This document shows, in pieces, positions 32,741 through 56,090 of a stretch of DNA of 64,000 nt (position 1 is the first letter of the stretch; each line of letters begins with the position of its first letter). The position numbers and the translations under genes are program-made. Under the pieces are notes generated by a model. The model had not been told where the DNA came from, searched no databases, and was given only the letters and a program-made list of their open reading frames with translations. The DNA comes from Yuukianura sp. NJ FZ-2021 (lineage: Eukaryota): positions 10,974,001-11,038,000 of the forward strand of contig CM102286.1 in the NCBI GenBank assembly GCA_046563655.1, given 5' to 3'.

Positions 32741-33950
32741 TTATTGCCTACTGGTTATGTTTAGTGGTTTAGCCGTGGCTTGATTGACGCAGGAGATGTG
32801 CGTTTTGTTACCTCCCGCAGTACATACGAATCCAGCAGGGTTAAACGGTGTAAATAATTGCCTCGGAAGGAGCGCTTTCGTGATGTATGCGGCTCTGTCA
32901 ATGCAGGCGAGCTTCACCGACCCCATTTCTTTCCGTGTTGGCGGTCGACATACTAATGGATTTGGATTCCGCGCAGTCTCGTTGAAACTTGAGGTCTTGT
33001 GTAAAAGAAAAATTAAAACAGGTTTTTTTGTGAAGAAGCGTTCGTTGCTTTACAACGCTTTTACCTGGAAATATGAAAATCCACAGGCTCTGTCACAGAA
33101 AGAAGTACAGTTGCTATCAATGTCGAAACATGTTTTGAAAATGCCGTGCTTCATGTTTTCTTGATGCGTCAAAATCTGGTCACAATCCTTCATTTGGACA
33201 CAACCCGACTTGGCTTTGGTAGGCATCTGTTTAATTACAAAATTACAAATTATTTTCTAAATGTTTTTTAAAAAATTTGAATAAAGAAGATTCATATTAC
33301 AACTTGTTCTCCTTTAGCTAGCTTTACGACTAGCTTTGTTTCGACTACTGTGCCACTACAAGTAAAGTAATTCCGTTTCTTTTTGTACAGGGTTTTGCGG
33401 TAGTAGATCTCTTCTAGTTCAAAGAAGAATTTCGGATATTGTGACGTAATATAACTGGCTCCAGAACTGCATTTACCAAGCAACTCTCTCGTCGGCCGAA
33501 TCTTCGTACACTTTGGGCCAGGCGGGTCCGTTAGATTTGCCCAGTAGGTAATTGTAATTGCCTGCAAACAAAATTGGGTATTTGTTGTCTTCTTTCTGGT
33601 TTTCAGTTTAAATTGTTTTCCAACCTTTCAACCGCAGTAGAGGATATAATTTGAAGAAGGCTTACTTTGAGGTATCCGATGAAACATACACCGTTTGTAG
33701 TTTCATTGCTGCAAAAGCCCTTGATCGAATCGTTTTAGATGTCGTCCATGTTCAGAATCTCTTCGCAGTCGTCAGGAGTTGAACATTTCAGGGAAAATAG
33801 GAGAGTACAAATATAAAATGTCTAATAAGAAGAATTAAACATTTACATTTGACTGAAGAGTTTTCTTACGTCCTCGGTTAAACCTTGTATTCCTTTTATT
33901 TCGGTGGTCAAAAGCAAAAACCAACCGACAAAAATCAACTGAAACCTCAT
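32741..33950 (-). pseudogene. Secreted Cys-rich protein with two internal repeats; in-frame stop in exon 2
   Basis: Signal exon 33950-33870 (MRFQLIFVGWFLLLTTEIKG), then four exons. TAA at 33735-33737 interrupts KCSTPDDCEEILNMDDI*NDSIKGFC. Homologous to 37249-37908. Confidence 0.65.
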
Positions 33951-34288
33951 CTTGTAGTGGTGAAAGTGATTCTGCACACTTATTCCAAAAGTTTTTTTTT
34001 TTTGCTTGAACTTTTGGAAGAAGACGTACCTTCACGAAGCATAAAATTGAACTGGTTAGGGTATAAGAAAGTCGATATTTATATATCCCAAATTGGGACA
34101 ACGTCTAAAATCGAATTTGGGCTTCTGAATTTTTTTTTAGGACAAGACCCATTTGGCAAGAATAAATAATTTTCTGCTGATTTGGAATTAAGACCGATTT
34201 TATTGTTCTAGGTTGAGATGTGACATAGTGACCAAGGTTCCTTCTTCATCAAAGTTTTGGAAACGAAAATGAAATAATGAAATTTTTT

Positions 34289-36891
34289 TTAGTAAACTGA
34301 AACTCCAACATTGTTGCAAACTTCCTCTGATTCTATTGGTGGAAATTGGTAGACTTGTTTTGCAATTTCTTCATCTTCGATAAAGGTCATGCCCAGTCCA
34401 GCTTCCAAATGCTGATTGAATAGAACAAAACATTGGTTGAAATGTAATTTTTTTTTAAATTCAGTCAAGCATACCCAATTAATGTGACAGTGGAAGAACC
34501 AGGCGCCAGGGTTGTCTGTAGTGTACGTAAATACTGCCCATGAATTTCCCAGGGTAAAAGTTGTATCTCGTCTCACTCCATCTGGCGTCAACTTTGATTC
34601 GTCTCTGCTAGAAATGAATGCTCCTGCTTCGGCAGCTCCAGTTCCAAGCACCCAAAAAGAATGGCCTTCAAATTATGAAAAATTATTCTTGTACTTTTCA
34701 AACTTTGAAAAGGAAATTCTAACAAATTCCTTCTGTAGCAGTATCTTACCGTGGAGGTGCCAGGGATGCGGCAGCGGATGATAATTGTTAATGACAACGC
34801 GAATCACCTAAAAATTAAAATTCAAATGTAGATAAAAGTGGCATGAACTATTTACAGAAATTTACTTCTCGTTGCTTTGGGGTGCGGATGGGTCTTGCCG
34901 AGCTTGGAATTTGTTGGTTGTTGATTAGTTGAAAAAGAACTGGGCTTTTGTTCACACTGGCCGGAACAAACGGTTGACCATTCATGCACATGCGCGAAGG
35001 ACTTCCAGCGATTGGACAGTCTGTTACATTGATGGTAATGAGTCGGTCATATTTCGTAGGCGCTTTTCCTTCTACTCCAAATTGCAATGGTGGGCATTGC
35101 ATGTCGTCGAGCAAAGTAGCTGTAGAAGCACTGACAGGAGTAGATGTTGGAAGTCGAGTCTTTTTGACCAACTGCGCATGCTCTTCATCCAGTTTCTTTT
35201 GTAAATTAGTATCAATTTGTGGCGGTTTTTTTGGAAAGAATTTGTCCAAATCCTCTATTGTGTCGGGAGTGATGCCACCAGCTTGGATGATATCGTCCCA
35301 CGGAACGTCTTGGAAATCGGGTCGACCTTGAGCCACTCCGGAAGGAGGGTCATCACGCCCAGGACGTACTGCCCCAGTTGTTACCGACGAAGATGATGAT
35401 GCACTGGCTGCTCCCGATGCCGAAGCAGTGGCTCGACCTTGACGTTTACCGCCACCCTTTCCTTTTGCGTTACCTTTGTTGTCACGTATAGGGTTAGCAT
35501 AGTTGAGTTACACTTTATCATTTTTATTGTTACTTTTAGTGGTTACCTTTTGGTTTAGTTGTAGGTTTCGGTGTAGGGTTTGCAGGGTTTGGCTGGGGAT
35601 TGTCGTTTGACGCAGTTGAATTGCTTGTGTTCGACGTGTACCGCAAAACAGCTCGACCCAAAAGTCCAGCTGATCCTACCGGTATCCCAGAAATTCGGAT
35701 CCAATACTCGTTGCGGGGTTGATCCATCGTAACCAGGATTGAGTACCTCTGTGCTGCTAGAATCGGAATGACATCTACCGCTGGACTTTTGAAAGTGTCA
35801 ACTCCATCCGTTTCAATGACAACCATCTTGTGCCCATCTATGCTAAAGTTGTAGGTTCTTGCGCCAGAGGAATTCAAAATTCGAAACCGGTAGCGTTTTC
35901 CACGCGTGACTTCAACTACAGCTGGACCTTGCATTGTACTGTTACAAGTTTGACCTTTCTCAACCGTTGAACAGTTGAACGTACCGCGAGCGTTGATGAG
36001 TGACGAGTTTGTGTCAGGAAAAATTCCTTGCTTTAGGTACACTTCGCTGACATCCTTAGCTGGACGGTGAATCCAATCGTTGATGGAGATTAGCCGTTCA
36101 TCGTCGTACGAATTTTGCCAACATTCCGCTGGCGAGTTTTTGATAATCAGGAAACCCCAAGCTCCGTCGACGTACTGGTAGGAATGATGAGAATGGTACC
36201 TGAAACCATGGTAAAAAAAAAACGGCGCTAGTTTTGAATTTTAGAATTGTAGTTTTGAAGTTGTTTTTACCAGTATGTCCCAGCTTGGAACACTTGAAAC
36301 TTGTAAATCATAGATGTGTGTTTTATAACAGGGCATTGCGTGATGGACTGTGGACCGTCATAGAATGGTGACAAGTTTTGTTGAATCCCGTGCCAGTGGA
36401 TAGACGTTGGTTCATCTTTGTCTGGAATGTCATTCGTCACACGTACCAGCATGGTTTTACCTACTGTGCATCGCAGGACAGGCCCAGGGAATTGTCCATT
36501 GAACCCAATTATTCGTTTCTGGACCCCATCGGGTGAACCATTGATGTATTGCATACGTATATCATAAATGCAGAGGTCATCTGACTCTGAAATGTCATAA
36601 AAACGCGCCACTGTATCAAAATTCGGTTTCTAATATTTGATGTTTCAACCTACCGAAACCGATAGTGTTGTTGTCGCTAGCATTGACGATACTGACACTG
36701 CCAGTGGTGGTAACGTTCTTGCTTGGAGCAGATAGACTTGGTACCTTGATGTTGCTCAAGCTGTGGTTCAGCTTGGCCCAGCTTTTCCAAAATTCAGTGT
36801 TGCGTGCTTGCCCGGAAGTGGAAGACTGAAAAAATTTAGCAGTTGTCGTCGAAAACAAGAGGAAAACCAGAACAGTTGAACGGAACACCAT
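34289..36891 (-). CDS. Secreted three-domain multicopper oxidase (laccase-like)
   Basis: Signal peptide plus all four Cu-binding motifs across introns: SIHWHG, GTYW|YHSH, HPWHLHG|H, DNPGAWFFHCHINW|HLEAGL. Low-complexity linker between domains 2 and 3. Confidence 0.93.
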
Positions 36892-37248
36892 TTTCGAGGA
36901 AACAAAAAATCTAACTGATCGAATTTTCACAAGTTTTGACCAAAAAATGAAGCTTTTAGCTGCAGCATATTTAAAATTCAATTATTTGGAGAACCAGCAG
37001 CTGTATATGGTTTTTGCTGCATCCTTTTTGACGCTATCACGCTTATGTACATTTCCCAACAGGATCATCATACTTAAGACAAACTAATTACCGTATTACA
37101 TGTCATAGAATCAGAATAACGAGATCATCAACCAGCCAAATTAGTTTTCAAGGTGAAATGTATTTTTCGTAAATAGGAAAGTTATATTATAATATTCACA
37201 TATTGAAATATTATAATGGGTTTGTTGAGAAGGGCACGTTTGTTACGT

Positions 37249-37908
37249 TTAGGCTGTTTCCTTCTCAATCCCTTCTCCGGAACATGCGAAGTACGTTCGG
37301 TTTTTATCAATTTGATTTTGACACGAGTAGGCATCTCCAAATCGGGCTGCAAACATTGGAAATCGTTGAAGGACTTCTTCTACTGCTTCGCTGCAACGTT
37401 TGAAATTGTTGGTGTCTTTTGGCAATTTAGTACACCAGGGCGCGACTGGATCCTGCAGCTTTGCCGCCAAGTTATAAGATGGAGCCTGAGAAATTAATTT
37501 GTTTCGTTTGGGTTAAATAAATGAGAAAATAAATGAGATTAAATAAATGAGAAAAAAAAGATTTTCACAGTGATGTAGCCAATGAGGCAAGTTCCAGGAA
37601 AATTCTTGGCAGTGCAGAAAACCTTGATGGATTCATTTTCCTTGTCTGCATCTCCGAGAATCTCTACGCATTCTGCAAACATCTCGCATTTCTATCGGTT
37701 TAGAATTCACCAATGAAGAAATATTGAAACATGAAATAATGATTATCTACGCTGGAAGTGTTATATGTTATTCTGCTCTTTGCTTGATGTAACCAAGTTA
37801 CTGGAAAAAATTTATTGAAAACATAATTACCGTATCAGCAGCAGTCACGGAAGAGGTGCAAATGTTGCTGAGAATAAAGCACGCTAAGTAATACAGAAAA
37901 ATATCCAT
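37249..37908 (-). CDS. Small secreted Cys-rich protein, single-domain paralog of 32741-33950
   Basis: Three exons: signal MDIFLYYLACFILSNICTSSVTA; KCEMFAECVEIL...SIKVFC...CLIGY; ...DPVAPWCTK...RTYFACSG. Confidence 0.75.
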
Positions 37909-38684
37909 AGGTTTGAATTTATTTCTTCAAAAGTTTGTTGAATACTGTGGCAATATTTTCAAAGCGCATTTGAGATATGAGGAGGAGAAATGTTATTCCA
38001 CATCCAATAAATTATGACGGCATTGATTCGGTAAAAGAGGTCATAAGCATTTGAATTTTAAAGTTAACCTAAATATAATCTTACAAATTTTCAGGTCGAG
38101 CTTTGAATTTAAACAAAAAGACACGTCGGAAGTTTTTTCCAGATTTTCAAAAAAGCGGTATTTACTATGATATATTTTCTATTACATTTATTTTAATTTT
38201 TGCTAAAAAATTTGCAATTTATATTTTTATAATTAGGGATACGATACAAAGTGTTTCACTGTTCCGCGAGTGCAAATGAATTCGGCAGGGTTGAATGATT
38301 CGTAGAATTGCTTGTTTGTCAAACCGTCGGTGCATGCTGCTTTGAACTTTGCCGAGGCCTCCTTGTATTTTGGTGTTTATTCAGTTCGGTGTTCAGGATT
38401 TGGATTCGGCGCAAACTAATCGTTATTTAAAAAAAACTTATTCGAAATCCAATATTTACCAATTCAAAATACCGGCTAATTTTGTTGTAAAAATAAAATA
38501 AGTTTCTAAAAATTAACAATTTCTGCCAATTATATTTTAGTACTCTGACAACGCGAAAGAGTACCTCCTAACGTTTCAAAACAGAACCTGCAATTTCTAG
38601 TTTATAATATGGTTGTGTGCCTTCTGAGTTCACAAATTTCAAAATTGGTACGAACTTTTTTTTATCAAAATTCCGAGATACAGC

Positions 38685-40557
38685 ATGAAAAGTAATGGAT
38701 GTTTCCAATGGCTAAGGAATGTTTGGGCACCCAAGCGAGTCATTGCTGCAGGATCCCTCTACGACATTTTTCTGGAAGAGAAAGATCGACATCAAACCCA
38801 GTTGTTGGACACAGCTTTGGCTGAGTTGCAGATCATGAGAAATGACGTCTATGAGTCACATGAAACCGTGATGGAAGTGTGTGCCATGTTCAAGTACGCT
38901 CTCTGGGATGCCCTGCGTCACTTAAATTGGAATCAAAGTCAAATGTACAGCGTTATGAGCACTGTGGTTGGACGATGCAGCAACACACACAATGTAAATG
39001 TAGTTGACCGTGCACAGGCATCTGAACGGATCCAACTGGCAGACACGTTGAAAACTTCCGTTGACTTCGTCCGTTCTGTTGATTCCTCGGACCCTACAGC
39101 AGGTCAGCGTATTGTGAGTGGGTATTTAATGCCAATCAACGACGAGTTTCAAAAAATGGCCAAAATTATGGACAAATTGTGCGACCTGTTCAAGTCCAAC
39201 TTGGAATATGTGACACCAGTATTGCAGAGCCAAAGTTTAAAAGTTTCTGTGGTGGAGTCTGAAAATTTGGAGCGACGACCCAAAAATCACAGACTTTGCA
39301 TGAGAAAGGGAAAAAGATTATACAAAAATTCATCAGAATCACTTTACGGTAATAAAAAAAAATCCAATTCAACAATTTGAAAAACACACCCAGCATCTTC
39401 AAAGAATTTTTTTTTCAATTGTTTACCAGATCCCACTTACTCTACCGTAGTGAGCGAAAGATCAACTTCGGCTATGGCCTGGACGTTATCCGCTGCCACT
39501 GATCCTGATCAGCCTGTCGCAGGTCCTTCAAAATTCTGGTCCAAAGCAATTTCGAGACTTGGTAGACTCTGTATTTGTTTTCGAAAAAACACACAGAAAG
39601 ATCCATCTTCTCAAGCCATCGTCGTCAAACCTGTTCTGCAAAATGACAAACCGACGGAATCCGAACACCATCAAGCTGGAGCCATTTTCCTCCCACGTGA
39701 AGAAAGCGTAGTTACGAAATTGTCCAAAGAAGTTTTAGCAAACAAAAATGCCAATGCATTGCCTTCACATCAACTTCAAGTCGCTCCTATCTCCACAAAC
39801 GCACAACAAGGCTATTTTGAAAGTAAGAACTAATTCGCTTAATTTTTTGAATCAGAAAATAAGTAGAAGCTAAACGTTCTTTAAGATTCATGGTTTTCAT
39901 TAATATATGGCTTTCAGCTCCGAACGGGAATTTAAACTGTAACGAAGAGCAGAACCAATTAGTGACAGTAAGCTTTACAGGTACGCCAAACCACTTTTTA
40001 GTGAAAATTTCATGAAAACTTATTAAAATTTGTGAAATATTTAAATCAGGCAGTTTATTATTTAATTTAATTTAGACTTCGACTTCAAAGATAAGCCTAC
40101 AACCCTAACCAGTGAAGACCTCAATCTTGCCAATACTGAAGAATCGTCAGGCTCAAGTTGCCTTAACCCACTGAGCGACATTTTGGTCCCTCTAAACCAA
40201 GTCACAAAAACGATTTTTGCCATCTCTAAAATTATTTCTGAAGTTGATGAAAAGCACTCTGCAGTGCCGGTTCGCTTTATCAACTTCAAGGCTCAAAGGA
40301 ATGCTACTCGGTCAATGACCTTTGATCATCTCTTGAAACACATACTGCAGAGTGTGCAAAAGATTGAAAAAGTTGCTTTTCCGAAGATCTACGATGAAGA
40401 AGAGTCTGTCGTACGTTCTGGTATTGAGCACCTCTTCCTGGAAATACTGAAATGTTCTGAACTCTTCATAAGTTTCTCAACCATGCTTCGAACAGTTGAA
40501 GCCCCGCTTCGTGACTTTAACTTTTCCATGACGGCGACTTCTCAAATTTCCACTTAA
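38685..40557 (+). CDS. Uncharacterised ~533-aa protein
   Basis: Exons 38685-39348, 39430-39822, 39918-39980, 40076-40557 join in frame (1602 nt) with GT/AG. No family recognised. Confidence 0.7.
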
Positions 40558-41073
40558 AATGTCCTAGACACTACAACACAAATTTACCAAGTAAACTCCT
40601 GATGCTGTAACGTTGTTGGCGACTACTCATGCGCGTTTCGTCGCCTCACAAAATGAATTTCTCTTCAAATTAGAAACGTCAACTAAATTCATTGTTAAAA
40701 GTTCAGGTTAAAAAAATTACGTTTTTTTTTAAAATAAAACGGGTCATCTGAGCACGAAAATTAAATCTGTTGGATTTTTGTGTTTTTTCATGCTTTAAGT
40801 ACAAAAGTATTCAACAAAAGTTCATCCCATGTAATAAATTATAGGCCGAATTATAAATAGCATAAATTAATGTGCCGACTATGTGTAAAACTAGATGCGT
40901 ATATAATTCTGTAAACATTTGTAGTAAACGTGAAATCAGAAATGAATTGAAATGAGAAATAATACAGTAACTGGCCAAATTGGTTTATATGTAAGGAACC
41001 TTGTAATAATGCTTTTATTTAAATTATTGCAATAGTAATTAATATATTGTTGAAATTCATATGGTTGAACAGA

Positions 41074-41509
41074 TCAAGTACAAATTCCCGTCGTACTGCA
41101 AGTGTTTCCTGGCAAGCAGTCCACACGACGCGGCCAGTTCGGAATGGTGCCACATTTCGCGCCACGAGTCGCAAAACATTTCTTGCGGGTAGAGTCCCAC
41201 CAAGTATTGAGGTTCGACGGCAAATCAGCACTTGACATCGTTAAAGCTTCCGGACAACGACACCTTCCTTCGAAGCATACAAGATTCGTTTGAGCTCCAT
41301 TACAGTGATCGTTTCCAATACAGAGACTCCCTAGATATTCAAAAGACACAAAAATTATTTCGCCAAAACGCAATGACATAGTTTTAAATCTATACAAAGT
41401 TGCGAATTATACTTTGTACTAATAAATTACCTCTCACAATTTGGCACGTCCCAATTGTTACTGCGACACAGATTACAAAGACCACAGGCAAAAGGCAACT
41501 TGCCTTCAT
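41074..41509 (-). CDS. Small secreted Cys-rich (EB-module-like) protein
   Basis: Signal exon MKASCLLPVVFVICVAVTIG. Exon 2 LCIGNDHCNGAQTNLVCFEGRCRCP...CFATRGAKC...CLPGNTCSTTGIC. Confidence 0.75.
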
Positions 41510-41985
41510 CCTTTGCAACTCGATTGTGGATTTCAGAAATCAATTTTAGTAAACTCTCCACTAAAGACAATGTATAGTTTGCCAGAAGAAAATCTGAAGT
41601 AGTGATGAAGCAACTCCAATCTTGTCTACACTGAAATCCTTGGAAAAATTAGGAGCACTTTGGACTAATTGAATTCTTAAGGATTTTGACTTTCAAAAGA
41701 CCTTGGAAAGTGGGACAACCACAAAAAATACGCCTGGAGTGGATTAGTACTTCACGTTTTTGGCTTAGAGACAGATTTTTTGCCCTTTAGTGTTTATAAA
41801 TAAAGCAGGGTCAAATTCAAAAAAATTAAACAGTCAGTTGGCACGGATCCAGCTCATATTGCATTGATGCGCGCCAAAGTCTAATCCGACTTGCATAAGT
41901 TTAATAATTTTATTGCAAGTTCTTAACGTAGCCGCAGAGAAAAGAGTTCAGAATATAGTTATTTTGCTTTTCCCGAATTTCGGGT

Positions 41986-44900
41986 TTACATACATTGCGG
42001 AACTGCCGGAGCTTGGCCTTCTGACTCTGAAGCTAAATCATCCTTAACAATATGCTTGTTAGTGGTCGTCGCAACCATTTCAGCATTCATGAGGTTCTCC
42101 AAGTGAGCTGTAAGTTTTCTAACTGTCTGGTTTTCCTGTATAGCGCCAACAGTCACTTGGCTTTTTTCGAAAATGCTTTGAAAACGATTGCGTAGTTCAA
42201 TGGTCATTAGAGAGTCGACTCCAAACGCTGAAAAGAGTTTATCTGGATCCAATTGCTCGGCATCATCAACCCGAAGCGTCGCCTTCAACAACATGCAAAC
42301 AAATTCTTCAATTTTGTTTCGTCTTTCCTGTGCATCGGTTGTTTCTTTGAATTTCGTTCGGGTGAATTTTTCCCCAACATTTGTAGCCGTCACCGAATTC
42401 AAATTGTTAGAATTCAGTTCATCCAAATAATGGCCCAGGTTCACGACCTTTTTTAATATAGCCCAGTCGAAGACATCTACCACGGTACACCGAAGTTTAT
42501 GTTCCTCCATGACCATTTGAAGAGCAGCCAACCCTTGACTTGGAGAGAATGTAATGACTCCGTTCCGATTTCCTTTATAAACTTTTGCATCCGCTGCGCC
42601 TCCAACCTAAAACAAAAATGTTTATGTAATGTTTGTAATATTTTCATTTTTTTCGTTTCTTGTAAATTCATTTCAAAATCCAACGAGTGAACCAGCCCCC
42701 TGCGTTCAGCCCCCTTAGCAACCAACGCCAGCTTTTGTTTGTGACGTCACTCGTTGAAAAATACCGGAATTCGGGGAATAATGATGGCATCCTATAGAAA
42801 CCCATATATTGTTTGATGTTTAGATACGCGCCTCGGATAATAAGCTGACGATTACGGTATTTTTCAACGAGTGACGTCATAAAAAATGCCGTGGTAACCT
42901 AACAAACTTTCTGTTCGCACTACCTGTAGTTATTCTATTTACCTTGGGAGTGAACTAGAAACGCCAGTCAATGCAGAAATACTATTTATAGTAATACCTT
43001 CTGCCACGCGCCGAAGTTGATGCTGCATGCCGGGAGACCCATTGAGTGTCGATAGTGTGCAAATGAATCTAAGAATCCACAAGCGGCTGTATGGTTGCTG
43101 TTTCCTAGACTGCCAAAATTTGATGCTATACTTGAAAACATAACGAAGAATTCAAGACCACAGTCGAGAGTCAACTTGTGCAAATTGATGCACCCTTGAA
43201 TTTTTGGTTGGAAAACCATTTCGAATTTTTCCCACGACAAATTTTGTATGATCCCGGATGCGTACACTCCTGCTGCGTGCATAATTCCGCGAAGCGGCGG
43301 CAAATTTAAACTCTTTAAAGATTCGAAAAGTGCTTCTGCTTCTTTGTAGATACCAATATTTGTTTGAACTGCCAAAGTTCGACATCCATTTTTGTTCATA
43401 CCCTTCAAAGCTTCTTGGGCTTCAACTGAAGGTTTCCTGCGTCCAACAAGCACTAGGTTGGTGGCCCCCAATTTTATCATCCACTTGGCCACTTCCATAC
43501 CGATCCCACCCAACCCACCGGTGATAATGTACGTACTCTGTGAATTGAAAAGACGTTTTTCAAAATGGACGCGGCCTTCCGGGGAAATTTTGGTTTCTGG
43601 AATGGTGATCACAACTTTCCCAATGTGTTTTGCTCCTTGAAAAAAAGAGAAAGCTTGCTGAATTTTGTCTATTGAAAATGTTTGGTGTGGAAGACTGGTG
43701 TAAATGCCATTTTTCAATTCGGTTTCAATTTTTCTCATAAGATGGCAGAATTTCTCGTTGATCTGCAACATGCCATGAGATACGTCTACTAGAAAATATT
43801 TTACATCTGGACGTATTGTCTTCACTTCGTCTTCGGTCCAGGTATTTACTTTCCCAATTTCAACAAATCGCCCATTTTGAGCACAAGCTCTGAGAGACGC
43901 TTCTTTGAAGCCAGAACCAGTGAGCGAGTTAAGGACAACATTCACTCCAGCTCCATATGTGTCTTTCATTATTTCGTCCCCAAAATCCGTAGTTCTGGAG
44001 TGGTAGACATGTTGAATTCCAATTGATCTTAGGTACGCTCGTTTCCTTTTGCTGCCTGCCGTGGCAAATATTTCCGCGCCAAGACGTTTGGCCATTTGAA
44101 TCGCCGCGAGGCCAACCCCTCCTGTGGCTACATGTATCAGAACTCGCTCCCTTTCATCTAGATTTGCAAGTTCTTCGAGTGCATAAAAACATGTGAGAAA
44201 TGCAACTGGAATTGTAGCTGCCGAGGTAAATGTCATTTCGGGCGGTTTTCGTACCAAACACCGAGAGGAGACAGTGAGGTGAGAAGCCAATCCATTCCCA
44301 GGCACAAAACCAAAGACAGCGTCACCGAGGTTAAATTTGGTGCAAGTGGGACCAACGGCTGAAACGATTCCAGCTATTTCTAACCCTGGTTCTTGAAGAT
44401 CAGTTATCGAATCCACAAATCCTTCTGGTTGAAGGATGAGAAACAAATCTCTGAAGTTTAGTCCCGTTGCTCGTACAGCTACTTCAACTTCGTCTCCCAC
44501 CGGATCCATTCTCGAAGCAGGAGAAATTTCCAAATCATTCAGACTTTGGCTAACTGGCTTCGTTACTTGAAAGCAAGTCGAATTTGGAAACGCAAGTGCA
44601 CGCGTTGAATTTTTATCAAGTATTAATCTTTGGTGGAAAATTGTGTCTTGCCGTATTGCTCTGAACACTTCATCGCTTTCCCTGGACCAGATCATCGCAA
44701 AAGTCTCTTCTACTTCTCGTTCAAAATCGACTTCATCCTGTGCAAGGTCAATGACCTTGAGTTTAAAATCTCTGTGTTCGTTTGCAAAAGATCTAATGAA
44801 GGCTGCAGCCGTTCCAGCAACTGGGTTTCCTGGTCCAGTGTCTCCAACGTAATAAACTCCACGCGTCACCAAAACTAATTTTGATTTTGTAGTTTCGTTT

Positions 44901-47900
44901 TCCTGGGCTGAAGAAAGTTTTTGGCAAAGTTCGAAAAATTCTCTGCATTTTTGTTGACTTCCGTCAGAATGTTCATGAGTCTCAGTCCATAGAAAAAGCA
45001 CTCCTTCTAACATTTCATACATGTCAATTCCTGTATCGTAGGAAACGACTTTACGTCCATAATATGACAACTTCGAAGTCAGGTTTGATTTCAAAAAAGA
45101 ACAATCTCCATGTACAATCCACGTTGATTTATATGGAGCTGAGAGGACCATAGTAGGCAGAGCTGAAGCCAATTTATGTCCAGCTACGACGCCAAAGTGT
45201 TCATCAAATGCTGAGAATGTTCTTGTTCCACCAAATCCAGCTCTCTCGAATGCAATCTTCCATTTTTCTGTAGTCAAAAGTGGTGAACCAGTTCTACCAT
45301 CCGTTGACTTCCACCATTCTTTCAGGAATCCGAACGATAAATTGACGTACGTCAAATCCTTAAACATTTCACCCAATACAATAATGCCTCCTGGTCGCAG
45401 AACAATGTTTAAATTTTTCAGAGTTTGTACAATATCTGCTGTTGCATGAATTACGTTGGCAGCAATGATAATGTCAAATTCGTCTGGAGGAAAGCCTTGA
45501 CTCAGAGGATCTTCCTCAATGTTGAACAATGCAAAGGTTACGCCCTTTTTGAATTTCTTTTCCGCTTCATTCAGAAAAGAAGGTGAAATGTCTGTGAAAG
45601 TGTACTGGCATGAGACCTTGAGCTGCGTGAGTCCTTCAAAAATCAAACTGCAACAAATTCCTGATCCTGCGCCAACCTCCAAAATTTTAAAGGCTCCATT
45701 TCCGGTTGACGAGTTGCTAATGCAGTCCAGAACCAATGAGGTTGGCAGGATACTAATTTCTTTGAATCCTTCTCCTAATAATTTTTTTCAAATTCAAATT
45801 AATTCAATTCAAATTAATTAATCAAATCAATTCAAATTCAGTTTTACAAATGAATTCAAATGTAACATTGTTTTCGAGATAGAACAGGTTGATTTCTTTT
45901 AGACTTTGATTTTATAATAAAAAAGAGAAAAAAAAAGGAGTTTCAATTACCTTCAGAATAAAATCTCAAAGCACCAATTTCAGACGAGTTTTCTGTAAAG
46001 AGGTATGAAGTAGGAGCAATTTTCCCTTGAAAAACGCTTGGAAGATGACGGCCACATCGTTTTGCAAATTGAGAAATCACACTTTCCTTTTTGTTTGTCA
46101 GTTCGAAATGATGTCCGAATCCATCCGAAATTTCTTTCTCTAATTCTTCCGAGGTGGGAAGTTTTTGTAACACTTCATAAGTTCCATCTTTAGTTTTTTG
46201 CAAATAGGAAATCTTAGCTAAAATTTCCATGACCTTCCCAGACTTCACAATTCCCAATCCGGGAGCCAACTTTGCCCAATCACAAATATTTAGGTTTTCT
46301 CCAACGTCGGGCCAAGGCCATTCAGATTCAGTAATTCCCTTAATGAGGAACATCGTAAATAATTTGTCGATGATTTGAAAGCTACGCAATGTTGCGACCT
46401 CTTTATCGGAAATAGATTTTAGCGTGTGTTTCATGAATCCGGATAGTTTTATCTCAATTAACTTTGACTCGACTTGACTTCGTGTAATCCTGTTTGTTGG
46501 ACGCCAAACTTCTTCCAAAATTGTCGGTAATAATTCAGTTTCTTGACATAATGTTTGCAAGAATCGGAATGGTGTCGTGCTAATAAATTTGACTCCTTCC
46601 ATTGTTGTCAAAATGTTTCCTAAATCATTTGCCAACGTTATAGTACGTGCTCCTTCTGAAATTGTAAGGTACGCAAAAACTTTTCGTGTAAATGTCCCCG
46701 AGTAGAAACTGAATTTTTTGATTGCAACTGGCAACTGCAGTCTGCTGGCTTTATCAGTTTCTTTGTCAGTCAACATTGCATGAATAACAGAAGTTTGGAG
46801 CATTGCGTCGAGAACGATTGGATGACAAATGTAAGAATTAGAATCTTCTGCAGGAATTTCAATTTCCGCTAAAACAGCATCCTGTGCAACCCAAGCTCGA
46901 GAAATTGATCGAAATCTCTTTCCAAACTGGTATCCGACCTCCACCAGTTTATCATACGTTGTGTGCATTGACTCCAAACAGTCTAATGTTTGCTGTATGG
47001 TTTGTAAGTCAATAGACGTGATGCCTGTGAGACGACTTGGAGTAATTGTCGCTATTGCGTGTCGTTTCCACTGCTGTGGAGTGTCACGAGATTGCTCGTG
47101 GATTGTCACTTCGAACTTGAGTCTTTCTTTGTCAATTGATTGCACAATAGTTTGAATTTGACAGGATCTGTTCAGTTCTAGGGCAGCCTCGATTGTGAAG
47201 TTTTCAATGCAAAATGGAACTCGAACCTTTCCGCCCTGCAAAACGTGATACCCGGCCGCCATTATGGTTTCAAGGAAAGCCGCTCCAGGAAAAACAATTC
47301 TCTCCGCAATACGATGATCACCGAGAAATTTAAGATTTCTGGTTGATAGAACTTGAGTGAAGATGTGTGCTGGAAATGGAGTCGGTAGTGGCGCTCCAAG
47401 TGTTGGGTGTAGAGACATGGGATGCTGTGAGCCAACGTCAACATCTTCTCGTTGAAACCAAAATTTTTGACGTTGGAATTGATACGTAGGAAGAGTCAGT
47501 TTACTAGCGCCAGAAAACCAATTCGTCCAGGAAATCTCAGCACCAGCTACAAACATCTTGGCCAGTGAATTCAAAATAGAAGCCAAGTCATCTTCGCTTC
47601 TGCGTAGTGAAGGACAAAATGCGTCCTCTTCCGAACCCTGCAGGTTTGACATAGTCAAGGCTAACAAAGTCGGTTGGGTACCGATTTCGACAAAGACTTT
47701 TGGGGAAGGGACAAGTCTTTCTAGTTGGATTACAGCGTCACGAAATCTAACCCTGTCTCGCAAATGACGCGCCCAGTATTTGGAAGAAAGTTCACCCAAT
47801 TCTAATTTTCGCCCAAATGTACTGGAGATGTAGCAACAATTGAAGTCGTGTGTTTTAACTTCCGCCGCGATTTGTTCGAATTCTATTGATATTGGATCCA

Positions 47901-50900
47901 TAAGTTGAGAATGAAAAGCGTGAGAAGTTTTCAAAAAGTTTGCTTGGAGTCCGTTGGATTTACAAAAGTTAGCAAACTTTTCCACGTTATCTGAGGCGCC
48001 AGACACCACGACTTGCTCGTCGGAATTCTCGGCTGCAACATCAATCCAAGAATCTGCTGAGGATTGAATGAATTCTTCAATCAACTTGCGGACATCTTCT
48101 GGCGAATTTTTTAAAGCCAACATTTTCCCGGCTTCGAGTGAATGGACGAGTTTACTTCTGCTAGCAACTAGTTTCATCCCATCTTCAAGTGACAGCACGC
48201 CAGCGCAAACTGCCGCACAGAATTCACCCGCGCTGTGACCTAGGACAACGTCAGGGTGAATTCCAAAAGAGTTCCACAGTTGAACCAGTGCAAACTGAAC
48301 TGAAAAAATGGCCGGTTGGCAGTAGATGGTTTTGTCCAACAAGGCAGCATCTCCCCACAGAACTTCCTTCAGTGAACACATCAAATGATTCTGGAAAAGT
48401 ATTTCACATTTGTCCAGCGCCGTTCGAAAAACTGGCGAATCATTGTAAATGCTTTTCGCCATTCCGAAGTACTGTGACCCTTGACCTGTGAATAGAAAAA
48501 CCACTTTCGGTTTCTGCTGCACCGCCTTTCCTTTGATGAAACTTCTCTGTTTTAATTTTGACACGAGTTGCTCCGTATTATTGACTACAAGTGCAATCCG
48601 GTTGGCCATGCTTGCCCTTCCAGTATTTAGAGTATATGCGATGTCATACAATGTAAGTTCTGGATTCTGCTCAAAATGGGAAATGTGTTTTTCACAAAGA
48701 GATCCCAAGGCTTCTTCGGATTTGGCAGAAACCTGTATCATTTGTAACAAGTTTGAATTGGGTTCAAGATTTTTAGGTGTGCGCTTCGGTGGCTCTTGAA
48801 CGATAATATGAACGTTGGCTCCACTCATGCCGCTCGAACTAGTGGCTGCAATCCGCCTTTCTTGTTTCCATTCTGTCACTTCCAATGGAATAATTCCCGG
48901 AATTTTGTCGAGATGGATTTTGGGATTTAAATTTTTAAAGTGGAGGTGCGGTGGTATCTGTTTGTGTTTGAGACAAAGCAGAATTTTTATAAGTCCAGCA
49001 ATTCCTGAGCATCCTTCAGTGTGTCCAATGTTGGTTTTCACAGAACTGACAAGGAGCGGTTCTGCCCGATTTTCGGAATAAACTTGTTCAATTGCTCCCA
49101 TTTCCGCTGGATCTGAAATAATGTGTATAAAACTTATTCAAAAGCTCGTTAAAGTTACAGCCTTCGAGGTATTTTTGTTTCCGTTAACAAGGTTAATTAA
49201 GAAGCAGTGCCATTTACTTGGCTTCGTTAGACTACATTTGGGTTTCCTTTGGTACTAATAGAGATTTAAATATGCTACATCGTATATGCTCGGTTATTCC
49301 GCCTAACCTAATAAATAGGTACAATCTCTTGCAATTAAGAAAAAATTAAACTCCATTGTTGTAAAGATTTCCATTGTTATGGTTATGGGGAAGGGTATGG
49401 GGGCAAGTGACTATAGGGTCATGGGGGAAGGATATAGGGGAGAGGGTGGGAGGAGGGGGGTTCGGAAGCGGGGGTGGATGAGATGACGTCATTATGTCAG
49501 AAACGTTTTACGCAGATGCAATTGCTGATGAGGGCAGCCATTTTCAAAACCCGAGCATTCCCATGGAGGTACATGAAAACGTACATGGAGAATTAGGAAA
49601 GTACATAATTTCGCTACCTCCTGCTGGCGTTCCTGTTCCATGTGGCTCGATGAGAGTAACATCGCGAGGCTGAATGCAAGCATCAGTCAACGCCTCCCGG
49701 ATTACCCTTTTCATGGCATAAAGATTTGCAGTTCCGTAGCTTGATGGCCCGTTGTTATTTAACCCAATTCCGCGAATTACGCCGAGAATATTATGACCTT
49801 CGCGAATGGCGTCAGGCAGGGGTCGCAGCACTACTGATGCAATTCCTTCAGCCCGAGCATAACCATCGGCTCTAGAACGGAAAAGTTACTTTAAGAAGTA
49901 TGATTTTATAATTTTAGCTGTTATGATTCCTCACCTCGCGTCGAACGATTTGCACTTGAAATCTTTTGCAAAGGTTGGCGCGTCCGAAATTGTTCCGCCA
50001 CCAATTGGATTAAGGCTGCGAAGTACTAGGTTTACTCCAGCGGCAATTGCAATTTTGGAGCTTCCATTGCGCAAGTTTTGGCAAGCAAGGTACAAAGCTG
50101 TTCCGCTACTCGAACAACCGGTTCTATAAAATAAAAAATATACGTGTTAAATATTTCGTTTTTAAGAATTCACAGTACGAGCAAAACGGGATAATTTTTG
50201 TATTTAGAGGTTCTCACTCTGTACAGTAGTTTGGTCCATGAAGTCCAAGCAAATTAGAAATTCGTCCAGAGGTTGTGCTGAAAGTATTTCCCAGGTAGAC
50301 TCGAATGTAGTCGTCTGGATCTAGTCCATACTCTGGAAACCAACTCTTGTACTCAGATTGCCAAATACCTAAATATACTCCCGTGTCACCTCCACGCAAG
50401 TCGTCTGGATTGATGGCAGAGTTTTCGAGACTCTCCCAAATCACTTCCAGAAGAAGACGTTGCTGAGGATCCAAAAACGGTGCCTCACGAGCACTAATTC
50501 CAAAAAATTTAGCATCAAATTCATCTATTGGGCATTTCAAAAATCCCGCCTGAAAATTTTTTGTATCGTCGTTTAGGTGGCGTGATCTATTGGATGGGAA
50601 CGGTCCAATGGGATTTCGACCACTGATGAGCAACTCCCAAAGTTCATCGGCATCATTTGCTCCAGGAAATCTGCAACTCATGCCCACCACTGCAATTGCA
50701 TTTTTCAAATCCTCCCGGTGGTCCTCTCGTTCAGTACCATTTACCGTGACGTGTCCATTTTTATTTAGTTGATACCTTTCTGCGGATTTCAAAAGATACG
50801 TTTTTGTACCGTCGTCCTGTTTAAAAAAAAGTTTGAAATGTGTTATTCAACTTATTAGTTACTTTGTTAGATAGTATATTTTGGCAATGAATTTCGTTTG

Positions 50901-53347
50901 AAGCTGGAGTAAAAAGTGTTACTATATTTTACTTGTATTTGCTGAACTTGTGGCATAATTTCGGTTTCAAATGTAGCCATCCAATTTTGTTTCATTTCTT
51001 CACAATAAAATATCTTGCACGAAGACGGTGCAGTAGCAGCATTGTTATCTTGCGAGGCATAAGAGTCTTCATTGCTGGACAAACCTTGCATGTCTCTATC
51101 AAATTTATTTCAAATAAAAATTTTAAAATAGTTGTTACTAAATTGAAGCTGTGCTTCTATAAATGTTTCCATCTTTACGAGTTTTTTCCATCCACTTACA
51201 TCAGCTTTTCTGAGGCAGACTCAAGGATTTGATGTCTTGAATTGCGAAGGACAGAGGAATATTTAGAGCTCAAAATTTCCATCGCATGCCCTATCACAAA
51301 GAGGGAACCTTAAATTTACTTCCAGTTATTAAGTACTACTTAAATTTCGCTACTTTGCTAACGTTATGGTTTGAGGTTGTCTGTCTGGCCAGCCATTTGT
51401 CCGTCCGTCGACGGCAATTATCTCGGAAACGCTCAACAATTCCGGGAACTTTTTTCATTAATGAACATCGGGTCGCGCATAGGGTTCGATGCTGAATACA
51501 TTCCGGCGTGCGAACTCTTTCCGGGTCAAAGGTCAGGGTCAACAATTTTTCCCCCCAGTAACATGGAAAGTGACCCATACAAAAGTTGTTCATGCATTGA
51601 GATGAACTCTTGTGTTCAGCGTGTGACCACAAGTGACCACCTCCGTGTCAAACGTCAGTAATTTTATCGTTCATAAACATAATGCAGCGCCATCTCTTGC
51701 TTCGCTACTTTAGACTCCGGTTACGACCGGATTTATTAAATAGCGAAGGCTATTTGATAATAAGATTCGTGGGCGTCCGTTTCTCCTTGAAAACATCAGA
51801 ACAATTATCCCTGGAACCATTATTGGAAAAATTTCAACTGCGTCACCATGTCATGACCCGGACCTATTACGGAATATCACCAGATTGATGACTTTTTACT
51901 AGGTCAAAGGTTAAGGTCATGCACCTTTCCAATATAAAACCGGGAAAGGCAACCCCCCGCTCCCACGAAAAGTGTGGCAACCCACACTCCCCCATGGGGA
52001 TGCCGATTAGAGGCGGGAACCCACCACGCGCTCTAAGAGTTCCCGCCGTGCACTACTACCTCCGCAGTATACTACCTGGGTTAAAGGTCAGTGGGTCCTT
52101 CGCTACTTACGTACCCTCGGTTTATTACAACCAGAACTTGTTTTCTTCTATTTTTGAACGTAGGCTTACCTCGCAGATTTTTTTGGCTTAGTTTCACCAG
52201 TTGATCAAATTCCTCTAGACTCGGTTTGAACACGACAACCTTCGATGAAATTTTTATACCGCAGTCAGCAATGTCTTCAACAACAGCCGAGAACGACGGA
52301 TGCAAAAACAGTTCATCCGAATTCTTGTGCATCTGTAAGACAGCAATGTCCATACCAAATCATTAAAGATAACTACCAAATGAAAAATTCTCTGCTTAAA
52401 ATTAATTCTGGTTTGTTGATTCAAGTATGGTTAGTTAGGCATTGCTGAAAATAAAGGTTCGCTTGAAATCATAGTTGTCACATCCCGTAAAGACTGGAGG
52501 ACTTACGTAGGTCATAGGGTGAACGTAGACACACTTAATCCAATTGCGCAAACTCCAAAGCCAAAACACGCCATGCTCTTTGTTCCCCACTTCGCTTGAC
52601 TCAAACCGCAAAACCGTATCAAATTCACGATTTAAGAGTTTTCTGAAATTCAAATAAAAATCCAATTTTGAAGGCGACGTTTGGCTGAAATCAAACTGAA
52701 CGGAGCTCTTTTGTGGTAAGATCAGTACGTAACATATATGCCGAGTTTGACTCCAAATCTAAACCGAATGGAATACTTACAGCGTCACCGACCTCATTTT
52801 CTATATTATCGTAGTTAAGTTTTATGTTCTTTAAGTATAGGTAGTAAAAAAAAAAAGAAAAAGTTGGCAACAATATTCCTTTCGCTTTAAACAGCTTTAA
52901 AAGTTCTGACAACGTAATTCTATCAAGTCATAATTATAGTATTCACTATTAGAGCAGTTTTTTGTTGTTGCAAGCGGTGTTTATAAGTTTAATTATCAGC
53001 ATAAAGTCAAGGAAAGAAATTAACTTGACCTATTAGTTCTGTTGTTAAGCATGCGTAACTTTCAAGCATTTTCATTTTTGCTACTCTTCCTCACAGACAA
53101 AAAAACATGGTTTTACCTTATCTCATTTGAAACGTCTTCCGAGATTACAATGACCAAGGGTTTAGTTGTCACCGAATTTCGGATTGATCTAGCGAGCACC
53201 AACGCTCCCCAAGCTTCTTCCTCATTGCTCGCCAACGTCACCCAACACTCGTCTTCTACATGCCAAATAAATACCGATAAAAAATGACAATCTATAAAAA
53301 TGCATAAAGTGTATGCTTTATAGAATTTTTTGGTAACTACCCTTCAT
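41986..53347 (-). CDS. Glycogenin-like (GT8) domain fused to a reducing type I polyketide synthase: GT8-KS-AT-DH-MT-ER-KR-ACP, ~2,770 aa
   Basis: Exons 53347-53341, 53255-53117, 52642-52507, 52332-52170, 51290(or 51308)-51200, 51095-50933, 50816-50218, 50123-49935, 49871-49618, 49112-45951, 45774-42998, 42606-41986 join in one frame. KS TGCSSS/EPHGTGT/NIGHTE; AT GHSAG/HAFH; DH DHRIAERIVFPG/LDAMLQ; MT LEVGAGSG; ER GGVGLAA; KR TGGLGGIG; ACP GVDSL; no TE. PKS identity is near certain; the fusion is inferred. Confidence 0.85.
42691..42946 (-). mobile_element. ~256-bp interspersed non-autonomous repeat, copy 1 (PKS last intron)
   Basis: Near-identical inverted copy at 62575-62830. Internal 25-bp inverted repeat TGACGTCACTCGTTGAAAAATACCG. 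Confidence 0.85.
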
Positions 53348-54308
53348 CGTTTTAGAGTTGAAGAACAAAATTGAGAATGACTTCTGATTATATGAAGGCA
53401 CCCTTCTCTATTGTGTTTTTAAGTTGCTAAACGGTTAAGTTTTGTTGTAAGAATCGTGATCTCAAAAATTGTTTGTGGAAGAAACTAATCCTCGCTGAAG
53501 ATTTCGTGAATTTATAGTCGGGCGTAAATTGAGACGCAGCGTCGCTACAAAACATTGAGTTTTTTGAGTAATTTGAGTGACTTTATTTTTCGAGATACAG
53601 CGAGTGGTTTGCGAAACCAGTCTCAAAACCAGTTATCAATTAATATGTCTTCAACTTCTATAATATCGATTTAAAGCAGGTTTCACAGGACTTTTTTCTC
53701 GTTTTCAAAATGATTGGCACTCACACCGACAATTTGGTTCTTCGGCTTGGAAATTCCAAAATTGACTTAAGACGCGTGCATTGCCATTGTAACCTTGCAT
53801 CCAGACCCTCGAATTTGTACATAAAGTGGTCGTGAAGACATCTGGTATCTACCATTAGAATGTATTTATTTAGCGCATATTGAAATGTATACGTAAATCT
53901 ACCTAAATGATAACAATCAACTATATAAAAAAAATAAAGACATTTTCAATTATGAAGCAAGTTTTTGTGTTTGTTCTAAGTTAGGTTACGTATAGCTAAT
54001 GTATGCTATTGGTTAGTGTGAGATGTGGGAGGTACCCAATTAAAACAACTTGAAATTGAAAACTTTAATTTACAAAATGAATTTTTTATTACTTTAGACT
54101 TCACGTTGATTAAACCAAAGACGACAAATGTATAGTGTCAATTTTAAGCCCTACAATTACGTAAGTGAGTCCAGAATTTAAATTATTGTATTAATTTATT
54201 CCTGAGCCAACTGGACATCACCAACTTCAAGTTCCTGGAAAGCAGGTTTGATAAACCTTTTTGCGACTTAACTGGGCAATAAGAATGTTGTGTTGGGATT
54301 TGTTGTAC

Positions 54309-56090
54309 TTAATATGTAAGGGCGGTGGCCCTGTTTCTGGCTTTCTTGGAATATGTAGAGGTTGAATTAAGAAATTGGGGGGTAACGAGGGATGAATTTG
54401 TAACCAGGATTGTACTGCTGTTGCCGGAATTCGGATTTCTTCTTCTAAATTGCAACCTGCGTTCACTGTTCCTCCTGCGGACTTCATTTGTGGCAGGCGA
54501 AGATGGGTTCGCTCTCGGTACCATCAGATCGATGAAATTGAAGAAGAAGCCCACGGCGGGTGAACTAAAGCAATCCACAGCGTACGGCGTAAATGTCTGT
54601 AGTATGCTCCTAACCACACACTGTGTAAATGGAGCGTAACTTTGGCAGTAGTACTGTTTCGGTTGAAACTCACCTGGAGCGGAAATAAATAAAATGAAAT
54701 TGAATTCTGTTTCTGATTTTTTTATATCTTTTAAGCGAAGTGCCTGATTCTTGATAATGTTTTGCTACTTACTTGCCATTGCCAAACCTGAGAATAAATA
54801 AATTTCGATCAAAACCAGAAAAGGCTGGCAAATAATTAGAAGTTGTTGGAATATTTTTACTTACATGCCTGTGCTTGCTCAATTACCGTCTCACGAATAG
54901 CTTCTGGAACATTCTCTTGGAAGTAAAACAGTGCTTGAACTTCATCCAACATACCGTCTTCCCCGATCTGGAACAAAAAATTATACTTTGCTAAACAATT
55001 GTATATTCTATACAATTTCAATAGATACATTTTCAAAAAAACAGGTTTCTTATTTTTTTGTTAATCAAGATTGTTCTCTTTTAAAAGATTCCGTACACTC
55101 AATTGCGTCAAAAACTAAAACCGTAAAATTGGACGGATTCAATAAAATTCTTTGATACTTTTATGCTATATCGCAACGTACGACATGGCTTTTAGCTATG
55201 CTTCTGCACGGTTTGCCGATGTTTAGTTTGCGATAAATAGTTGAAATGGCGAGATGCATGGTTGAAATATTCAAATCGGGTGCGATTGCGCGACTTGTGT
55301 AGGATGTCTACCGCATACCAATATCGCAAGTGATCACATCTTTCTAAAGTTAAGCAAGTTTGGCTTCTGTAAGTTAAAAAAGATCCAGTTCTCGCTGTCA
55401 ACAAACGTTAACCGCGTTTACTTGAAATAGCTGATATACAGGTTACGTGCGGTTTTCATTCTAACTACAAAAGAGTCATAAAAAAAGTTTGAAAAAAAAG
55501 TAACGGATGAATCTTACCACGCCGAGATCCATCATAGAGCACTTTACGATGCACTACAAATATTTTTCAAACAGTTTACAAACAAATGATTAAACAAATA
55601 GTTGTCAACTACATGCTACATACTACATGCAAGTTAGCAGAGAAACAGAAATATGCCTACAAAATGAGCTGCATCATTTTGTGTACGTAATAATAAGCTC
55701 TCTCTTAAATTTTATGCATAGTATAACATATATTACATAAAATCTTTTCGTCAGTTCAAATGGGGACTGCAACTGCAATTTCCCGCCGAGGCAGTTCAAG
55801 GCCGCCGTAATAAAGCCTTGAACGAGGCTGATAATTGACTTCTGGCAGGTTGGTTCTGGAACTTCTTCTCCGCCGCCATCTTCTCCTCCTTCATCTTGAC
55901 TCCGGACAGTTGGAACCTATTCCGATATGAACAATTTTAAATCTTAAACTTATACAACTATATTTTAATGTTTGGCACATTATAATATTGCCGCTGTATT
56001 TTCATAACACACCTGTATTTTCAGTAGTAATAAACAAAAATTGAATAGAAAGACGTATTTTCGAGAATTCAAAACTAATCGTAAATTCAT
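54309..56090 (-). CDS. Odorant-binding-protein-like secreted protein
   Basis: Six phase-compatible exons 56090-56013, 55916-55737, 55553-55518, 54967-54865, 54787-54773, 54673-54309. OBP cysteine pattern LNC...CIVKCSMMDLGVIGEDG...QAC...CQSYAPFTQC (C-x3-C, C-x8-C). Confidence 0.8.

Follow-up and report, generated by a model that had tools for sequence, protein, structure and literature searches.

The 64,000-nucleotide window analysed here (positions 10,974,001 to 11,038,000 of contig CM102286.1, assembly GCA_046563655.1), from Yuukianura sp. NJ FZ-2021, a small arthropod and probably a springtail, carries on its minus strand a gene for a large polyketide synthase (PKS), and the question raised by this locus is where such a gene came from and what it does in an animal. 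An earlier note on this DNA had described it as a microbial-style PKS rather than an animal fatty acid synthase (FAS), and as a candidate for horizontal acquisition. The first of these descriptions is supported by the analysis reported in the present work. Trees, distances and residue signatures further indicate that the PKS family to which the gene belongs is very probably of bacterial origin; the acquisition itself is old and concerns a whole springtail family of such genes rather than this gene alone. The gene also proves to have a second, animal component, a glycogenin-like N-terminus.

The gene spans window positions 53347-41986 and comprises 12 exons (Table 1), which together provide 2766 codons with zero internal stops and are separated by 11 GT-AG introns. 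The PKS part alone (50816-41986) is one spliced frame of 2533 codons interrupted by five introns, all GT-AG, of 94, 63, 505, 176 and 391 nt. All seven of the motifs quoted in the earlier note (LDPQQRLLLEV, RADGYARAEG, FLFTGQGSQY, LPTYQFQRQKFW, LEVGAGSG, NVIHAT and HAFH) were found in that one minus-strand frame, and the spliceosomal introns it had claimed are confirmed. The bounds that it had given to the gene, 41986..50816, have to be extended: position 50816 is a splice acceptor, and six upstream exons (53347-50933) contribute 233 in-frame codons, the host-derived glycogenin-like part, which had been overlooked. Behind this part the domain order is ketosynthase (KS), acyltransferase (AT), dehydratase (DH), C-methyltransferase (cMT), enoylreductase (ER), ketoreductase (KR) and acyl carrier protein (ACP). 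In a Pfam scan of the gene KS, CurL-like and RhiE-like linkers, AT, DH, methyltransferase (MT), ER, KR and ACP scored above the curated cut-offs, and neither a thioesterase (TE) nor a reductase (R) domain, nor anything else past the ACP, was found. The gene is integrated in the host genome, as had been proposed: the window sits on a contig of 15.5 Mb in a genome of 98.7 Mb, the GC profile across it has no break at the PKS gene, the gene includes host-derived exons besides its 11 introns, and its paralogues lie on 8 large contigs.

From a total of 1126 KS domains, sets of 99, 55, 42, 40 and 27 rows were used for trees with IQ-TREE; to limit the size of these sets, 5 of the host loci, 2 of the FAS loci and the majority of the bacterial and FAS rows were omitted. 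In the KS tree of 99 rows, 18 host PKSs, 5 from Orchesella and 8 further relatives form one clade, with a support of 100 in the Shimodaira-Hasegawa-like approximate likelihood ratio test (SH-aLRT); FAS stands apart at 100 without the window KS, and the bacterial backbone is a polytomy. The clade of host and Orchesella PKSs receives an SH-aLRT support of 100 in the KS, AT and four-domain trees. In the last of these, built from KS, AT, ER and KR (40 rows), it is nested among bacterial rows through nodes with supports of 96, 94, 95 and 96; 25 bacterial rows lie at patristic distances of 2.1-3.4 from it and 6 FAS rows at 4.5-5.3, and the host FAS is insect-like. A tree constrained to place the KS within arthropod FAS is worse by 190 log-likelihood units and is rejected by the approximately unbiased (AU) test (p = 1.4e-31); the nesting among animal FAS that the earlier note had named as counter-evidence to its proposal is the arrangement that the data exclude.

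Similarity measures agree with this result. The window KS is approximately 44-49% identical to the best presumed bacterial modules, versus 32-36% to the FAS rows printed. When exon 10 was searched against the PDB (best 60 matches, cut-off 122 bits), CurL scored 376 bits, DEBS at most 287, fungal enzymes 149-211 and the animal FAS-like PKSs (AFPKs) EcPKS1 and EcPKS2 130, and no mammalian FAS was among those 60 matches; with exon 11, mycocerosic acid synthase scored 310 bits, FAS 216 and LovB 173. All named organisms among the 120 KS-AT matches listed are bacterial, and those named among the MT-ER-KR matches listed are bacteria or Orchesella. By the scores of CurL and of EcPKS1 and EcPKS2, and by the patristic distances, the window KS appears nearer to microbial PKSs than to FAS or AFPKs. 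No specific donor branch is singled out by the trees. A scan of GTDB genomes gave, among the best 80 of at least 704 stretches, top identities of 40-47% in many phyla, and a search of protein representatives with the MT returned mostly giant multi-MT proteins, with no fungal PKS identified among them. A Parachlamydiaceae KS, which has a high score against the clade profile yet is not sister to the clade in the KS tree, was rejected as a donor.

Several points weigh against a bacterial origin, and they require that another history be considered, in which an old eukaryotic PKS line, sister to FAS or kin to fungal or protist PKSs, was inherited vertically, retained in springtails and either lost or overlooked in other groups. 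An arrangement in which the clade and FAS form one side of the tree is not rejected by the AU test for the KS (p = 0.535, the tree held to this arrangement being 1.36 units better), for the AT (p = 0.452) or for the four domains (p = 0.41), so that horizontal acquisition, although favoured by the nesting among bacteria in the best trees, competes with a FAS-sister position at p values of 0.41-0.54. Two KS intron sites coincide with sites in host FAS genes. The bacterial rows were selected by similarity to the query, and the trees sampled no fungal highly reducing PKS (HR-PKS), no sea-urchin or vertebrate PKS, none from sea urchin, bird or fish having come up in the sequence searches, and no named AFPK, nor were the published AFPK hidden Markov models run; of the KS phylogeny that the earlier note had proposed, the FAS and bacterial modules were covered by trees, fungal HR-PKSs only by PDB scores, and animal PKSs by PDB scores or not at all. 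Finally, the MT alone scores 118 bits with a fungal structure versus 106 with a cyanobacterial one.

The evidence that speaks against such vertical descent is of several kinds. The family is about half as distant from bacterial modules as from FAS, and Orchesella is the sole eukaryote named among the KS-AT and MT-ER-KR matches listed. Very few PKSs are reported among more than 18,000 arthropod KS genes (PMC10764717). As for the shared introns, the third KS intron of the window gene corresponds to a site in three of eight host FAS genes and one intron of the paralogue L039 to a site in five of the eight, and each of the two sites lies after a G within a conserved motif that contains Gly, where adjacent codons have gained introns in other subclades of the family; a third apparent coincidence, at position 91, is an alignment artefact. 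No KS intron is common to all subclades, the KS of the paralogue L038 has none at all, and metagenome contigs L164-L172 carry spliced relatives that share some KS introns with the host family (the KS of L165 is 88% identical to that of the host paralogue L033, with the first three intron sites in common), a pattern of differences and partial sharing which fits intron gains in an intronless ancestor. Vertical descent of a eukaryotic line is on this evidence an unlikely explanation.

A signature in the KR bears on the same choice. The catalytic Tyr is replaced by His in 16 of 20 host KRs and in 24 of 27 other KRs of the family, and in none of 128 FAS KRs, which are of the Tyr type; among presumed bacterial KRs (P0001-P0511, L084-L242), His is present in 96 of the 116 that lie behind an MT and in 5 of the 552 without one. 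That His is typical of bacterial MT modules and missing in every FAS argues against a eukaryotic origin, and its position behind an MT could reflect either shared descent or functional convergence. A review describes the replacement of this Tyr by His as occurring only "sometimes" (PMC7327777). The proposal that the window KR is dead because it has His for Tyr is ruled out, since His is the norm in the family and in donor-type modules.

Comparison with characterised systems leads in the same direction. Bacterial cis-AT modules (from cyanobacteria, Chloroflexi and Acidobacteriota, and including CurL, CurJ and CurK) are like the window gene in their domain order, CurL-like linker, HAFH-type AT and His-type KR behind an MT, with 34-37% identity over MT-ER-KR, and unlike it in that the window gene has introns, a host-derived N-terminus and no adjacent assembly-line partner. 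Fungal HR-PKSs such as LovB, which are also single modules with a cMT and without a TE, are likely functional analogues, but LovB has lower PDB scores (69 versus 107-115, 167 versus 376 and 173 versus 310 bits), the comparison being one of scores and not of trees. Animal FAS and AFPKs share the overall fold plan, and the host has FAS-like genes of its own; they differ from the window gene in the KS and KR features already described.

The origin of the N-terminal part is a separate matter. All 19 PDB matches of exon 2 are glycogenins, the best being glycogenin-2 and glycogenin-1 (E from 9e-4 to 0.04), and each of the 15 matches of this exon in the genome lies upstream of a KS; the N-terminus of a PKS from Orchesella dallaii (P0127) matches glycogenin-1 with E = 2.6e-15. 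Pfam searches with four single exons of this part gave no match. The host glycogenin, L270, was located by a short pattern (PF01501 gave only other genes of glycosyltransferase family 8, GT8), and it aligns to the N-terminal 233 residues of the PKS with a score of 165, compared with a maximum of 27 in 200 shuffles. The two genes have the same intron phases, 1, 2, 0, 1, 2, 0, with corresponding positions for four or five of the six introns, the second intron being placed at another codon in the host glycogenin. The PKS introns after nt 7 and nt 146 match introns 1 and 2 of human GYG1, where intron 2 follows c.143 and the skipping of exon 2 starts at codon 3 (PMC5735306). Judged by alignment and intron structure, the N-terminal domain is homologous to glycogenin (GYG1, GYG2; GT8). 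It is unlike glycogenin in that the DxD and GGDQG motifs of the host protein are absent from it, as DxD is from all 13 of the paralogue models printed, and the domain is probably now non-catalytic. Of 18 other loci whose upstream regions were examined, 13 allowed a glycogenin-like domain to be modelled and 5 showed none, and a tandem copy of the gene has one as well; the phase-0 junction to the PKS is at the same or nearly the same place in 12 of the 13 paralogue models. No description of a glycogenin-PKS fusion was found in the literature searched, as judged by titles and abstract openings. A side observation concerns L243 (G000:C3:3424574-3425401), a nearly intronless GT8 gene which is the best PF01501 match of the genome, is distinct from the host glycogenin and is possibly another foreign gene.

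The family within the host genome throws light on the missing release domain. KS searches gave 36 and 56 exon-level matches, from which 22 further PKS loci (23 with the window gene) and 9 FAS-like loci were modelled, one of the latter poorly (8 were used). Of the PKS loci 15 are free of frameshifts, 7 have frameshifts or insertions, for which assembly errors are possibly part of the cause, and one is a short KS-only form. An FAS normally ends in a TE; here an R domain is terminal in 13 of the 23 host loci and in 7 of 8 named Orchesella dallaii relatives, and because 13 of the 23 paralogues end in a reductase, the absence of a release domain from the window gene is best read as a secondary loss of R. 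The lack of a TE, which the earlier note had counted as a microbial trait, is real, but the missing release domain is better seen as this loss of a reductase than as such a trait. The window gene forms an R-less branch with its tandem copy and L021, and two further R-less genes, L023 and L037, are each sister to R-bearing genes, which amounts to at least three losses of R within the host set. A search for a remnant of the R domain in window positions 30001-42700 and downstream of four R-less paralogues gave nothing better than E = 0.39, whereas a control locus matched at 1e-138 or better.

These repeated losses could be taken to mean that the R-less enzyme performs a relay step, extending a chain once or a few times and passing it to a paralogue in the manner of bacterial single-module proteins, the more so since the closest bacterial architecture matches (e.g. 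P0150, P0160) also stop at the ACP and the genome contains short forms, one with KS-AT-DH-ACP (L039) and a KS-only locus (L040). The R-less genes are scattered, however, and the sole adjacent PKS is a frameshifted R-less copy. Characterised animal single-module PKSs, moreover, are, as far as is known, iterative, and a relay seems quite improbable.

That adjacent copy belongs to a block of approximately 34 kb (window 27425-61261), containing an ionotropic receptor (IR)-like gene, a multicopper oxidase, unknown genes, the PKS and a transporter, which is repeated directly downstream (G000:C4; L049, L050, L030, L051) with 77-91% DNA identity. The tandem PKS copy, L030, has two KS frameshifts and no MT; L021, L026 and L030 have lost the MT through deletions over a near-identical span, on different branches, and the catalytic site of the KR holds Tyr in L021 and Leu in L030. 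In another paralogue (L024, L083, L055; G000:C4:10377-10397 kb) the KS is split by approximately 10 kb with retroelement-like open reading frames (ORFs). L038, L039, L040 and L044 are divergent early-branching forms, among which L038 is an intronless frame of 2157 codons and L044 is R-less with a long tail. Natural variants with and without the MT, R or glycogenin-like domain thus coexist in one genome.

The window gene itself appears to be functional. The KS Cys-His-His, the AT GHSAG and HAFH, the DH His and Asp and the ACP Ser are all present, as are the S-adenosylmethionine (SAM) motif of the MT and the nucleotide (NADPH) motifs of the ER and KR; the HAFH motif denotes the use of malonyl-CoA. 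The ratio of nonsynonymous to synonymous substitution rates (dN/dS) is 0.25 overall against the tandem copy (0.30 in the glycogenin-like part, 0.08 in the KS) and 0.18-0.21 against three other paralogues, and it is below 0.5 in each domain for which it could be computed. On these constraints and motifs the enzyme is very probably active. A decaying truncated gene, or foreign DNA in the assembly, might be suspected from the frameshifts or insertions in 7 of the 23 loci and from the absence of the ancestral R domain, but 2766 codons without a stop, a dN/dS of about 0.2, the GT-AG introns, the exons derived from host glycogenin and the relatives on 8 large contigs make either highly improbable.

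A more specific doubt attaches to the KR, in which the conserved Asn and the Asp of the LDD-type motif are both missing, a further point against the function proposed here. Compared with 141 His-type KRs, it has a Cys at the Asn site (5 of 141), a Ser at the LDD Asp site (1 of 141) and an Asn at the Gln site (1 of 141), and the Asn is lacking in reductase-incompetent KRs according to the review mentioned above (PMC7327777). Together with the Leu at the catalytic site of the tandem copy, these substitutions raise the possibility that the KR is reductase-dead, and that the enzyme makes a short methylated poly-keto chain which releases itself as a pyrone or lactone, which would account for R having been lost. 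However, 124 KRs from large multimodular proteins also have Cys at this position, as do 3 His-type KRs presumed to be bacterial; selection on KR, ER and MT is not relaxed (dN/dS 0.13-0.21), and the R-less paralogue L023 retains a normal family KR. A dead KR is accordingly regarded as a doubtful explanation.

The history that best accommodates these results, and which as a whole is held with reasonable though far from full confidence, combines a bacterial module with glycogenin exons, the loss of R, and iterative reducing synthesis with release in trans. One bacterial cis-AT module of the order KS-AT-DH-cMT-ER-KR-ACP would have founded the springtail-type PKS family. A phase-0 intron joins the module behind six exons that correspond to the beginning of a copied host glycogenin gene, and these exons would have supplied a start and the N-terminal domain that is now apparently without catalytic function; the structure is plain, and the order of events is deduced from it. 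Introns were gained lineage by lineage, and the family multiplied to at least 23 loci. The tree suggests that the family ancestor ended in an R domain, which the window branch would have lost. The intact motifs suggest that the enzyme would load malonyl-CoA, add SAM-derived methyl branches and reduce the chain iteratively, and a separate enzyme (a host hydrolase, acyltransferase or reductase, or the R domain of a paralogue) might then free the ACP-bound methyl-branched acyl chain, with a cuticular, signalling or defensive lipid as a conceivable end product. Taken by itself, the iterative reducing mode with release in trans is only slightly favoured, and it has against it that none of the neighbours scanned could be recognised as a release enzyme. 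A tentative and rather unlikely suggestion is that the dead glycogenin fold may act in pairing or targeting, so that R-less synthases can work together with R-bearing paralogues or other release enzymes.

Many microbial-type PKSs in springtails have already been published, and the central finding is therefore not new. The genome of Folsomia candida is described as containing 30 type I PKS clusters, and the majority of the genes in them are called horizontally acquired (PMC5490193), and Lin et al. noted the springtail PKS OXA62418.1 as horizontally acquired and suggested that there are more in arthropods (PMC10764717). The kinship of the Folsomia PKSs with the window gene rests on these papers and not on sequence comparison. 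The available parts of PMC10531068, PMC11258130 and PMC10825826 give no product for springtail PKSs, and no biochemical study or product was found in the literature searched, the coverage of which left out most subscription journals. The Orchesella dallaii PKSs (P0127, P0131, P0135, P0136, P0139, P0142, P0143 and P0145) form one clade with the window gene, have the same domain order and a His-type KR, are 35-39% identical to it over MT-ER-KR and include the glycogenin-like N-terminus of P0127; they are unlike it in that seven of the eight have the R domain that it lacks, and the intron set of the Orchesella-side metagenome relatives differs. That the host is itself a springtail is suggested by this kinship, by the insect-like FAS and by the IR-like gene. 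The window gene is a member of this reported springtail family, distinguished by its chimeric N-terminus and lost reductase.

The features of the gene are collected in Table 1. The predicted, very short first exon agrees with two paralogues, for which the aligner also gave Met-Lys and a phase-1 intron, and its length of 7 nt equals the one that human GYG1 implies for its own first coding exon (PMC5735306).

Table 1. Exons of the window gene and the domains located within them (window positions)
Feature	Position	Strand	Description
Exon 1	53341..53347	-	inferred first coding exon; 7 nt, Met-Lys, phase 1
Exon 2	53117..53255	-	glycogenin-like domain; PDB matches
Exon 3	52507..52642	-	glycogenin-like; HPM where host glycogenin has DxD motif DAD (alignment)
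Exon 4	52170..52332	-	glycogenin-like
Exon 5	51200..51290	-	glycogenin-like, degenerate; tandem copy with same intron phases
Exon 6	50933..51095	-	end of glycogenin-like part; phase-0 intron, then PKS
Exon 7	50218..50816	-	linker and N-terminal part of KS (KS from ~50699)
Exon 8	49935..50123	-	KS with catalytic Cys (ETGCSS)
Exon 9	49618..49871	-	KS with first catalytic His (EPHGTG)
Exon 10	45951..49112	-	KS end (GHTEG), CurL-like linker, AT, DH
AT within exon 10	~48504-47539	-	malonyl-type; GHSAG, HAFH
DH within exon 10	~47412-46579	-	His and Asp retained
Exon 11	42998..45774	-	C-methyltransferase, ER, KR
cMT core within exon 11	~45682-45380	-	
ER within exon 11	~44494-43607	-	
KR within exon 11	~43537-43001	-	His at catalytic Tyr site, Cys at Asn site
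Exon 12	41986..42606	-	ACP (~42303-42100; GVDSL), short tail, stop

The neighbours of the PKS include an IR-like ORF, a multicopper oxidase, a transporter and a P450. The earlier note had named arthropod neighbours of two kinds, IR-like and odorant-binding protein (OBP)-like. The first is partly borne out by an ORF at 27832-29982 with two ligand-gated channel matches below the Pfam cut-off; for the second, the genome has three PF01395 matches, none of them inside the window. Immediately upstream of the PKS (54300-56000, minus strand) there is a small gene of several exons, which is kept in the duplicate and of which one exon was scanned with no Pfam match; it is perhaps the gene that was called OBP-like. 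The multicopper oxidase gene lies at 34292-36981 on the minus strand and has laccases as its best PDB matches (107 bits). Elsewhere in the window, positions 3019-13398 are a tandem array of 72 copies of a 144-bp unit (91% matches) with long open minus-strand frames.

For the biology of the family, the window gene offers an intact and testable member of a group that is without a published product in the literature searched. Its glycogenin exons illustrate a plausible route by which a foreign gene acquired a eukaryotic start, and its KR signature links the family to one type of bacterial module. If the tentative pairing of R-less synthases with R-bearing paralogues or other release enzymes were correct, springtails might possess a mix-and-match animal PKS system making undescribed methyl-branched lipids or lactones, a prospect which is as speculative as the pairing itself. 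A comparison of the variants that occur side by side in this genome would probe how chains are released in animal PKSs that have no thioesterase.

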